From NCBI GenBank assembly GCA_001791995.1, contig MGFR01000001.1:177148-241147 (forward strand): a stretch of 64,000 nucleotides of DNA. The letters are read 5' to 3'. The translations under genes were made by a program, and so were the position numbers. The notes under the pieces are model-generated. The model was not told the DNA's origin. It made no database searches and worked only from the letters and a program-made list of their open reading frames with translations. Positions 35,103-63,081 of this stretch are shown in pieces (positions within the stretch are counted from its first letter, which is position 1; every line of letters begins with the position of its first letter). Source of the DNA: Candidatus Woesebacteria bacterium RBG_13_46_13 (lineage in GTDB: Bacteria; Patescibacteriota; Microgenomatia; UBA8517).

Positions 35103-35110
35103 ACTGATAC

Positions 35111-35140
35111 TTGACACTATTTATCGAGGCTAGGTATAAT
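35111..35140 (+). promoter_or_regulatory. sigma70 promoter TTGACA-18-TATAAT upstream of tuf
   Basis: Perfect hexamers at 35111-35116 and 35135-35140. Confidence 0.5.
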
Positions 35141-35151
35141 ACGCTCAATGT

Positions 35152-35177
35152 AAGGGCAACTATGCCCTTTTCTGTTT
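35152..35177 (+). terminator. Terminator/attenuator-like hairpin AAGGGCA-ACTA-TGCCCTT plus a T-rich tail in the tuf leader
   Basis: 7-bp perfect stem immediately followed by TTCTGTTTG, downstream of the tuf promoter and 33 nt before the ATG. Confidence 0.35.
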
Positions 35178-35210
35178 GTAAAAGGATTAAGTTTAATATA
35201 AAATACGCAT

Positions 35211-36432: not shown

Positions 36433-36741
36433 ATGCCGGCAGGAAGACTAAGAGTCAAGCTTAAGAGCTACGACCACCGTGTCATAGATGAGGCGGCAGG
36501 TAAGATATTGGATACAGCCCTAGCTACCGGTGCAAAGATAATTGGCCCGATTCCTCTCCCCACAAAAAGAACGGTCATGGCCGTTAAAGAATCCCCTTTT
36601 ACCGATAAAGACGCACAGGAACACTTCGAGATGTTGATTCATAAACGCTTGATTGACATTATCGACCCCTCAGAGCGTACCATCGACTCCCTTTCCAATC
36701 TCGACCTCCCTGCGGGGGTATCTATCGAGATAAAGATGTAA
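36433..36741 (+). CDS. rpsJ: 30S ribosomal protein S10
   Basis: RVKLKSYDHRVIDEAAGKILDTALATGAKIIGPIPLPTK is the S10 signature. Confidence 0.95.
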   Translation: MPAGRLRVKLKSYDHRVIDEAAGKILDTALATGAKIIGPIPLPTKRTVMAVKESPFTDKDAQEHFEMLIHKRLIDIIDPSERTIDSLSNLDLPAGVSIEIKM

Positions 36742-36745
36742 CCTC

Positions 36746-36774
36746 TTGCGCAGTTTAGCTTCCTCTGATATAAT
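36746..36774 (+). promoter_or_regulatory. sigma70 promoter TTGCGC-17-(TGa)TATAAT in the rpsJ-rplC gap
   Basis: Extended -10 TGATATAAT at 36766-36774; -35 at 36746-36751. Confidence 0.45.
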
Positions 36775-36834
36775 TTTCGCATCGTGGAGGTGATCGGTAA
36801 GGTCTAATCACCAAGTTTGCAGGATGTGCCCCTT

Positions 36835-36859
36835 AAAGGTGCCTCCGGCACCTTTTTTT
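36835..36859 (+). terminator. Intrinsic-terminator-like element AAA-GGTGCC-TCC-GGCACC-TTTTTTT, 11 nt before the rplC start
   Basis: 6-bp GC-rich stem flanked by an A3 run and a T7 run (bidirectional terminator form), lying between rpsJ and rplC. Confidence 0.45.
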
Positions 36860-36870
36860 GTGTTCAAAAA

Positions 36871-37641
36871 ATGGATACGATTCTAGCCAGCAAAGGTGGT
36901 ATGAGCCAAGCCTTCGTAGAAGGAAGAAGAATTCCGACTACCAAGCTTATGGCCGGCCCTTGCGTGGTAACACAAGTCAAGAAACTGGACAAGGACGGTT
37001 ATTGGGCAATCCAGCTGGGATTTGGCCAGAAGCGGATTAAAAACGTTACCAAACCCCTTCAAGGACACCTCAAAAGCTTCATTAAAGACAACAAAGCCCC
37101 CAGATATTTAAGAGAAGTCAGGTTAGATAAAGAGCCGGAATTTAAAGTCGGAGATACCCTTAAAGCCTCCGACATTTTTAATAAGGGAGACATAATTGCC
37201 GTTTCCGGGATTTCCAAAGGCAAGGGCTTTGCCGGAGTTGTAAAGCGTTGGCACTTTGCGGGAGGGCCCAGGACCCACGGACAGTCCGATAGAGAAAGAG
37301 CCCCAGGTTCAATAGGTCAAACAACCACCCCGGGGAGAGTTTTTAAAGGTAAACACATGGCCGGTAGGATGGGTGGCGAAAGAGTAACCGTTAAAAATCT
37401 CCAGGTAGTGTCCGTTAATCCCGAGACAAACGAGATAGAAGTTTCCGGCCCCATCCCCGGTATCAAAAAAGGGCTGCTTATATTAAGGCGCATCTCGGCC
37501 GGCAAACTTGAAGGAATAATCGAGGCCCAAGCACAAGTCGTTGAAGGAGAAGCACCCGAGGGAGAAGAGGTAAGGGTGGAAGGCGAAGCCGCTCCGACCC
37601 CGCAGGTGGAGGAAAAGAAAGAAGAGAATGCTCAAAGTTAA
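36871..37641 (+). CDS. rplC: 50S ribosomal protein L3 (acidic C-terminal extension)
   Basis: MDTILASKGGMSQAF... matches the L3 N-terminus. ATG at 36871 is preferred because the upstream in-frame extension from 36817 would span the terminator-like hairpin. Confidence 0.88.
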   Translation: MDTILASKGGMSQAFVEGRRIPTTKLMAGPCVVTQVKKLDKDGYWAIQLGFGQKRIKNVTKPLQGHLKSFIKDNKAPRYLREVRLDKEPEFKVGDTLKASDIFNKGDIIAVSGISKGKGFAGVVKRWHFAGGPRTHGQSDRERAPGSIGQTTTPGRVFKGKHMAGRMGGERVTVKNLQVVSVNPETNEIEVSGPIPGIKKGLLILRRISAGKLEGIIEAQAQVVEGEAPEGEEVRVEGEAAPTPQVEEKKEENAQS

Positions 37642-62792: not shown

Positions 62793-63081
62793 GACCTCTG
62801 GAGGGTAGTAAGCCAGGTTCTGTTTCAGATGACCATCTGTCTAATGCCCTCAAACTTTGGGTCTCGGGAAAGCATCCTGATAACGACCCGTTCGGAGGTT
62901 GCAGCGGGGAGGATTGCCCCTTTTCACTCGTTCTCGTCTACCTTTAGGGTAGATGAGTCGACATAGTCTCTGTGGCTCTGACTAGCGCTTTCGCGTTCCC
63001 GCTTGCGCGGGACACCCTGCTTTCTGCTGCCTGGACTTTCCTCCCCGATTTTATTCGGGGCGGTCATCCTTCCTCCAGAGT
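62793..63081 (-). ncRNA. rnpB: RNase P RNA (bacterial type A-like, reduced, about 289 nt)
   Basis: The reverse complement contains the P4 strands AGGAAAGUCCAGGC and ACAGAACCUGGCUUAC, a P3 hairpin (GCCCCGAAUAAAAUCGGGG), the P9-like CCCGCGCAAGCGGG hairpin identical to E. coli M1 RNA, and P1 pairing CUCUGGAGG/CCUCCAGAG. Confidence 0.7.

Follow-up and report, generated by a model that had tools for sequence, protein, structure and literature searches.

The 129-nt gap between rpsJ and rplC (positions 36742-36870 of the window, by which we mean the whole 64,000-nucleotide stretch of DNA that was analysed) appears to contain the promoter and 5' attenuator leader of a separate ribosomal protein (r-protein) transcription unit that begins at rplC, with a surplus r-protein encoded in that operon as the likely effector. 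Our confidence in this reading as a whole is a little better than even. The promoter, hairpin, terminator and antiterminator predicted from the sequence are conserved and follow one another in the layout familiar from classical attenuators; which way control runs and which molecule exerts it we infer. Most likely, the element acts in the manner of the r-protein attenuator leaders already known and is an undescribed switch for a large r-protein operon.

The gene order in the window is rpoB-rpoC-rpsL-rpsG-fusA-tuf-rpsJ, followed by rplC-rplD-rplW-rplB-rpsS-rplV-rpsC-rplP and, through the spc and alpha genes, on to rplQ. The gene for S10, rpsJ (36433-36741, plus strand), is 76-95% identical to the S10 of relatives and closes the upstream tuf-rpsJ unit, its stop codon ending at 36741. 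The gene for L3, rplC (36871-37641, plus strand), has its ATG at 36871 and opens the controlled unit; rplD, rplW, rplB, rpsS and the genes beyond follow without large gaps at least as far as rplQ (about 50.9 kb). Between rpoB and rplQ the only gaps of about 100 nt or more that lack an obvious small r-protein gene are the rpsJ-rplC and fusA-tuf spacers. No Shine-Dalgarno sequence precedes rplC. Such sequences are absent from the first genes of transcription units more generally (start regions of rpsL, rpsG, fusA, tuf, rpsJ and rplC), where the upstream DNA is A/U-rich, and AGGAG-like sites are found at many internal genes (rpsC, rplN, rplE, rpsE, rpsK and rpsD).

The closest relatives by L3 sequence are metagenome-assembled genomes labelled Candidatus Woesebacteria, Microgenomates or Patescibacteria, with 62-86% identity. 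The original prediction held that the S10 operon is interrupted between rpsJ and rplC, and in the Woesebacteria-like clade the break is real: rpsJ is genuinely apart from the rest of the cluster. Its distance from rplC is about 130 nt at the least and exceeds 2900 nt at the most, and the intervening DNA holds unrelated genes, some of them on the opposite strand. Directly upstream of rplC, all related loci with enough upstream DNA (31 distinct sequences) carry the same unit, composed of a promoter, a leader of 84-102 nt and a terminator that lies 3-120 nt before the rplC start codon. The spacer element and its structures are therefore kept among relatives, which was one of the comparisons on which the original prediction had been staked.

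We built a covariance model, R1, from nine leaders. Searched against the window, R1 gives a single match (36781-36859; 90.9 bits with E about 1e-18), and in the relatives it gives one match each, upstream of rplC, wherever the upstream sequence suffices. R1 matched none of the 100 rpsJ-rplC loci searched from other phyla (about 0.5 Mb) and none of seven loci from other Patescibacteria (L039, L044, L125, L127 and L152-154), among which the L039 spacer is vaguely similar and not alignable. Judged from these searches, the element is apparently restricted to the sampled Woesebacteria-level clade. Rfam 15 returned no match for the whole window at the gathering score, for the gap at E <= 10 or for nine relatives at E <= 0.1; the only near-match, Atu_C8, scored 17.6 bits against a 50-bit cut-off and aligns with the terminator alone. 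A literature search on r-protein leaders and Patescibacteria found no paper mentioning both; the nearest elements in print are a candidate L4 leader of Archaeoglobi and an S10 leader of Firmicutes, both compared below.

The premise that rpsJ normally abuts rplC proved only partly correct. Spacers of about 10-30 nt are the rule in many phyla, but in many Clostridia they measure 100-260 nt and in Mesorhizobium 65-200 nt. These long spacers, which occur in Lachnospiraceae and other Clostridia (L016-L034) and in Mesorhizobium (L057-L080), include no match to R1; they do leave room for elements at the rpsJ-rplC junction in other lineages too.

The promoter of the source window reads TTGCGC-17-TGATATAAT (36746-36774, plus strand). 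Its -35 element, TTGCGC, occupies 36746-36751, and its extended -10, TGATATAAT, occupies 36766-36774, with the TG at 36766-36767 and TATAAT at 36769-36774. Among 32 distinct promoter strings, 31 keep the TTG of the -35 element and 31 keep the 17-nt spacer, while TATAAT and the TG are each present in 29. The two clear promoters without the TG (L090 and L096) carry a near-consensus -35, TTGACG, instead, which is the compensation expected of a working promoter. A consensus scanner omitted the source-window promoter because its -35 hexamer fits just three of six positions; the site relies on the extended -10. At three loci (L084, L085 and L091) the neighbouring upstream gene runs in the opposite direction; there rplC must have its own promoter, and the conserved promoter is the only candidate. 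Inspection by eye of the 3-120 nt between terminator and rplC revealed no promoter-like sequence in any relative, and transcription of rplC must therefore pass through the terminator.

Transcription would start near 36781, at the conserved A of a CA dinucleotide about 7 nt past the extended -10, and the leader RNA from this predicted start to the end of the U-tract (36781-36859, plus strand) would be about 79 nt long. The short leaders of the family are of type A (as in the source window), type A2 (a GUGGU/ACCAC variant) or type C (with a small insertion); the longer leaders, type B, have GUGGU..GCCAC as their hairpin P2. Folded by itself, the gap does not stand out (z = -1.6 and -1.3), and for this reason the case rests on comparison with relatives. 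Alignment by MAFFT followed by RNAalifold recovered the terminator alone, so a hand-made structure and the covariance model were needed.

In the source window P2 spans 36789-36812 on the plus strand, GGTGAT (36789-36794) pairing with ATCACC (36807-36812) to give GGUGAU/AUCACC around a 12-nt loop. One of its pairs is A:U in 10 sequences and G:C in 8, the closing pair is variously GC, AU or GU, and P2 is the sole consensus helix that RNAalifold predicts in the 5' half of the leader. In a model-based alignment of 19 leaders of types A, A2 and C, 93.8% of cells are paired, compared with 38-57% when the partners are slid, and four pairs show double changes. We propose P2 as the core of a sensor domain. 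The minimum-free-energy fold also contains a helix, P1, whose 5' strand (AUC-G-UG, 36781-36786, plus strand) pairs with 36820-36825. Its two sub-helices are paired in 77% and 97% of cells with zero compensatory changes, P1 was not recovered in the RNAalifold consensus, and no equivalent helix was found in the B-type leaders. Because double changes are missing and the consensus does not contain it, we rejected P1 as a proven family-wide helix and treat it as a tentative feature of the source window.

The intrinsic terminator (36835-36859, plus strand) is predicted to consist of a 9-bp stem, AAAGGUGCC/GGCACCUUU, with the loop UCC, followed by U7. In the DNA it reads AAAGGTGCC-TCC-GGCACCTTT at 36835-36855, with the T-run extending to 36859, 11 nt short of the rplC ATG. 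It was the top-ranked site in a scan of 18 kb and is among three hairpins of the 64-kb window that are followed by at least seven T. The helix is paired in 100% of cells and covaries, one pair being C:G in 11 sequences and U:A in 7. The original prediction had named an extended -10 promoter, a hairpin of 6 bp with a 12-nt loop and an A3-stem-T7 terminator ending 11 nt before the L3 start; each is present where it was placed and conserved among relatives, and the hairpin and the terminator covary. A further suggestion, that the element would also terminate transcription on the other strand, did not hold up, as only TTT follows the stem there and the 18-kb scan lists no minus-strand site at this position.

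Several observations suggest that the terminator is one of two alternative structures. A conserved linker, UGCAGGAUGUGCC (UGC-A-GGA-U-GUGCC; 36818-36830, plus strand), overlaps the 3' strand of P1 (36820-36825) and could serve as the 5' strand of an antiterminator, the 3' strand of which would consist of the terminator's 5' arm and loop together with the start of its 3' arm (36838-36850, plus strand). Constrained folding produced the alternative linker-terminator structure in every lineage. In the source window the predicted energy of the antiterminator state is -21.7 kcal/mol, as against -24.4 kcal/mol for the terminator state. In the B-type leaders the antiterminator state is itself the minimum-free-energy fold, at -25 to -31 kcal/mol, so that termination there would need something that blocks it.

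Pairing between linker and terminator is also conserved. In A-type leaders the antiterminator is paired in 88% of cells, compared with 36-56% with slid partners, and the changes in its pairs are one-sided only. In the ten B-type leaders, 15 antiterminator pairs are paired in 87.8% of cells and four of them show compensatory changes. Three of these four (52:84, 53:83 and 55:81; the changes are U:A/C:G, G:C/U:A and A:U/G:C) join the linker to bases of the terminator loop, which have no role in the terminator itself. Direct reading of L005 and the C-type leaders revealed further complementary changes: the loop is CUUGG or CCUUGG as opposed to CUCCGG, and the linker is CCAAG or CCAGGG as opposed to GCAGGA. 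Column counts miss these changes because the pairing register shifts. Relative to dinucleotide-shuffled linkers, the linker-terminator duplex has z = -1.8 in the source window and a family mean of -2.2, with a median of 4% of shuffles equalling it, values whose significance is overstated because the leader sequences are related. Taken together, the loop-linker compensation, the pairing and the duplex energies argue that the element is a terminator/antiterminator attenuator and not simply a leaky terminator, and on the evidence of comparison and folding the two structures are a conserved, mutually exclusive pair. The attenuator of the original prediction is thus supported, in that a conserved leader with its own promoter, terminator and antiterminator is best read as a regulated attenuator; the L4 or L3 that it named as effector is still a conjecture.

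According to the mechanism that we propose, the first 45 nt or so of the transcript would form the sensor, composed of the P2 hairpin and its conserved flanks. Left free, the linker would pair with the 5' arm, the loop and the start of the 3' arm of the terminator, and with the antiterminator so formed RNA polymerase would read into rplC-rplD and beyond. A factor that holds the sensor and the linker would prevent the antiterminator from forming, and the 9-bp/U7 terminator would then stop transcription 11 nt before rplC; in the source genome P1 (36781-36786 with 36820-36825) would assist in blocking the antiterminator. The factor would most likely be a surplus r-protein encoded downstream, uL4 by precedent, with uL3 or uL24 as alternatives, and its binding would exert negative feedback on the whole cluster. 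Since rplC has no Shine-Dalgarno sequence, additional control at the level of translation is unlikely.

An operon-encoded r-protein, of the kind that binds 23S rRNA as a primary binder, is a likely effector by analogy with known systems, and uL4 is the one to which precedent points. In E. coli uL4 controls the S10 operon, and domain I of 23S rRNA competes for uL4 (PMC10931766); uL4 and uL24 share a binding site at H18-H20, 23S nt 281-359 (PMC6426284). Visual comparison suggests a likeness between the leader (GUGGAGG, hairpin, CAGGAUGUGCCCC) and the uL4/uL24 site of E. coli 23S at 292-343 (GUGGAAG, hairpin, CAGGGUGACAGCCCC). In an unbiased two-block scan of E. coli 23S, a median of about 12 other places outrank 292-343, and a search of the E. 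coli rrn operon with R1, for which E. coli is a poor proxy of Woesebacteria rRNA, gave E values of at least 1.5. We have accordingly dropped the resemblance as evidence. With so poor a proxy, the 23S comparison neither supports nor excludes mimicry.

The same features might be those of a passive leader, in which the promoter and a leaky terminator would keep read-through at a constant level or shield rplC from the strongly transcribed tuf-rpsJ unit, without any ligand, and the alternative pairing would be a by-product of a GC-rich palindrome. Such a leader would fit with the promoter and terminator being the best-conserved parts, with the terminator state being the minimum-free-energy fold in the source window and with the one-sided changes of the A-type antiterminator. 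It would leave a conserved sensor of about 45 nt, with a covarying hairpin, without a role, and it does not account for the compensatory changes that tie the B-type linker to terminator-loop bases. An unregulated terminator would moreover be pointless in B-type leaders, where the antiterminator is far more stable, and insulation would be needless where the unit is kept although the upstream gene is on the opposite strand. We consider a passive leader unlikely. A riboswitch-like attenuator that senses something other than an r-protein of the operon, whether a small molecule (an alarmone or NTP, for example), another RNA-binding protein or an RNA, would have the same switch architecture; small aptamers of 35-45 nt exist, and with E. 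coli rRNA as the comparison no rRNA mimicry was detectable. This alternative is quite improbable given that the sensor is one simple hairpin, without the junctions or pseudoknots that are typically conserved in metabolite aptamers, that no Rfam riboswitch matched, and that the context is purely one of r-protein genes, for which every characterised leader binds an r-protein (PMC10931766, PMC7247131). The least probable of the explanations weighed here is that the conserved promoter, conserved structure and strong terminator are those of an independent small-RNA gene of about 79 nt, located upstream of rplC by chance and acting in trans. The element keeps one position and orientation with respect to rplC whichever gene lies upstream of it, the stretch between terminator and rplC has no promoter-like sequence discernible by eye in any relative, and the conserved antiterminator argues for a role in cis. 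The terminated leader could nevertheless have a second role in trans.

A different kind of likeness to rRNA is found in the 5' half of the leader. The segment GGAGGUGAUC (36786-36795) is perfectly complementary, over 10 nt, to the canonical 3' end of 16S rRNA (GAUCACCUCC), and AUCACC, which forms the 3' arm of P2, is a copy of the 16S 3' tail; these features are conserved in A-type leaders but not in B-type leaders. Overlapping them is an open reading frame of seven codons, GUG..UAA, encoding MEVIGKV (36784-36807, plus strand). These features allow for ribosome-mediated attenuation, in which the mini-ORF would be translated or the 30S subunit would bind GGAGGUGAUC, and occupancy of the sensor would select the antiterminator or the terminator. 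An R-U-G triplet is found at the homologous position in 31 of 31 leaders, always opening an ORF of 5-14 codons, and it is AUG in L090, L096 and L011 and GUG in the others; the sequence GGAGGUGAU occurs just twice in the 64-kb window. Against translation of the ORF, no Shine-Dalgarno sequence lies upstream, and the codon is only 3-5 nt from the predicted start site. The start codon is conserved, but neither a ribosome binding site, the frame nor the stop is: the position of the stop varies, and frame-shifting 1-nt indels are tolerated (L089 and L094). Pairing within P1 accounts for the codon's U-G in leaders of type A (97% paired), variable codon positions track the base-pairing of P2 rather than amino acid conservation, and B-type leaders lack the Shine-Dalgarno-like sequence. 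We consider it very unlikely that the switch is read by the translation machinery in this way, through 30S subunits or ribosomes on GGAGGUGAUC and the GUG/AUG mini-ORF. If it were, free ribosome capacity would directly set termination before a r-protein super-operon of about 14 kb in a bacterium of the candidate phyla radiation (CPR). A mimic of the Shine-Dalgarno/anti-Shine-Dalgarno pair in P2 (GGUGAU:AUCACC) and a leader peptide were both rejected as features of the family, the former not being conserved in B-type leaders and the frame of the latter being unprotected.

The reading that we prefer, an attenuator governed by an r-protein of the operon, can be compared with several known systems. 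Like r-protein leaders in general, the element lies in the 5' UTR of an r-protein operon and has a conserved RNA structure, with 31 distinct homologues, each of them upstream of rplC. The original prediction likened it to the E. coli S10 leader, relocated in front of L3. The two are alike in that each is the 5' leader of an S10-type cluster with an intrinsic terminator just before the first gene, and negative feedback would be expected of both (PMC10931766). They differ in position, the E. coli leader preceding rpsJ whereas the Woesebacteria element follows rpsJ and precedes rplC, and in size (about 170 nt compared with about 79 nt). The mechanisms also appear to differ. In E. coli, L4 stabilises a NusA-dependent pause at the attenuator hairpin, whereas the Woesebacteria element has a conserved antiterminator alternative, and with no Shine-Dalgarno sequence to sequester it has no apparent translational arm, unlike the E. 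coli leader. The element has no match in Rfam 15 even at E <= 10, a set in which the E. coli leader may or may not be included. With an architecture that differs as well, the notion of a relocated E. coli leader is not sustained: by the Rfam search the two are apparently not homologous, and they agree in the terminator but not in position.

The candidate L4 r-leader of Archaeoglobi, whose ligand was assigned by precedent only (Eckert & Weinberg 2020, PMC7247131), occupies the same place, directly upstream of rplC-rplD-rplW-rplB. That motif is archaeal and has no detectable relationship to the Woesebacteria element (Rfam, E <= 10), which has a sigma-70-type promoter and an intrinsic terminator. 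The S10 r-leader of Firmicutes/Clostridia, as it is cited in PMC7247131, is likewise a structured leader of the same cluster, but it precedes rpsJ, and no Rfam match to it was found here. In mechanism the closest match is with those Firmicutes r-protein leaders that attenuate transcription, for example the bL20-dependent leader of B. subtilis infC-rpmI-rplT, which is 200 bp long (PMC1865079). In such leaders, binding of the protein is linked to the choice between terminator and antiterminator. The bL20 leader differs from the Woesebacteria element in protein, operon, sequence and size, and rRNA mimicry, which is documented for L20, is not detectable here with E. coli rRNA.

The cis-regulatory RNAs of CPR bacteria are almost uncharted. 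Here a compact switch of about 79 nt, made up of a promoter, a sensor hairpin, an antiterminator and a terminator, seems to govern the main r-protein cluster of Woesebacteria, and it can be tested in vitro though the organisms are uncultivated. No concept is overturned, autogenous attenuation of r-protein operons being already well known. The detachment of rpsJ and the insertions at the junction matter for operon annotation and for the use of the S10-spc cluster as a syntenic marker.

The clade has an insertion hot spot at the rpsJ-rplC junction, where inserts of 0.3-2.9 kb lie between rpsJ and the leader (L001-L011 and L084-L115). The inserted genes encode an NAD-dependent epimerase (on the opposite strand), a GT87 glycosyltransferase, a histidine phosphatase (His_Phos_1), an FtsJ-like methyltransferase, a TAT-signal protein and unknown membrane proteins. 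Just before the promoter of the B-type leader, on the same strand, lies a conserved ORF of about 74 amino acids (..EKRLSWEKYLGCDSEVA..YL.R..G.P..DW..AE..V), which had no match in Pfam. It is present in six of the six B-type loci examined: L002 (73-288 of the gap), L004, L006, L007, L097 and L109.

Three further features of the window deserve mention. The 3' end of rplC (37480-37641) encodes a C-terminal L3 tail of about 50 amino acids, rich in E, G, A and P (..EGEAPEGEEVRVEGEAAPTPQVEEKKEENAQS), that extends past the roughly 206-210 residues alignable to L3 of other phyla. The RNase P RNA (bacterial type A; 62793-63079, minus strand) is only 287 nt long yet matches the full 367-position model, and so is a reduced version. 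The fusA-tuf spacer (35103-35210) contains a perfect TTGACA-18-TATAAT promoter sequence (35111-35140). Next, at 35152-35179, come the hairpin AAGGGC..GCCCTT and its T-rich tail, and another -10-like box immediately precedes the tuf ATG. The same layout is found in most of the eight relatives for which the region upstream of tuf is available, and this spacer may be a second conserved leader or attenuator.
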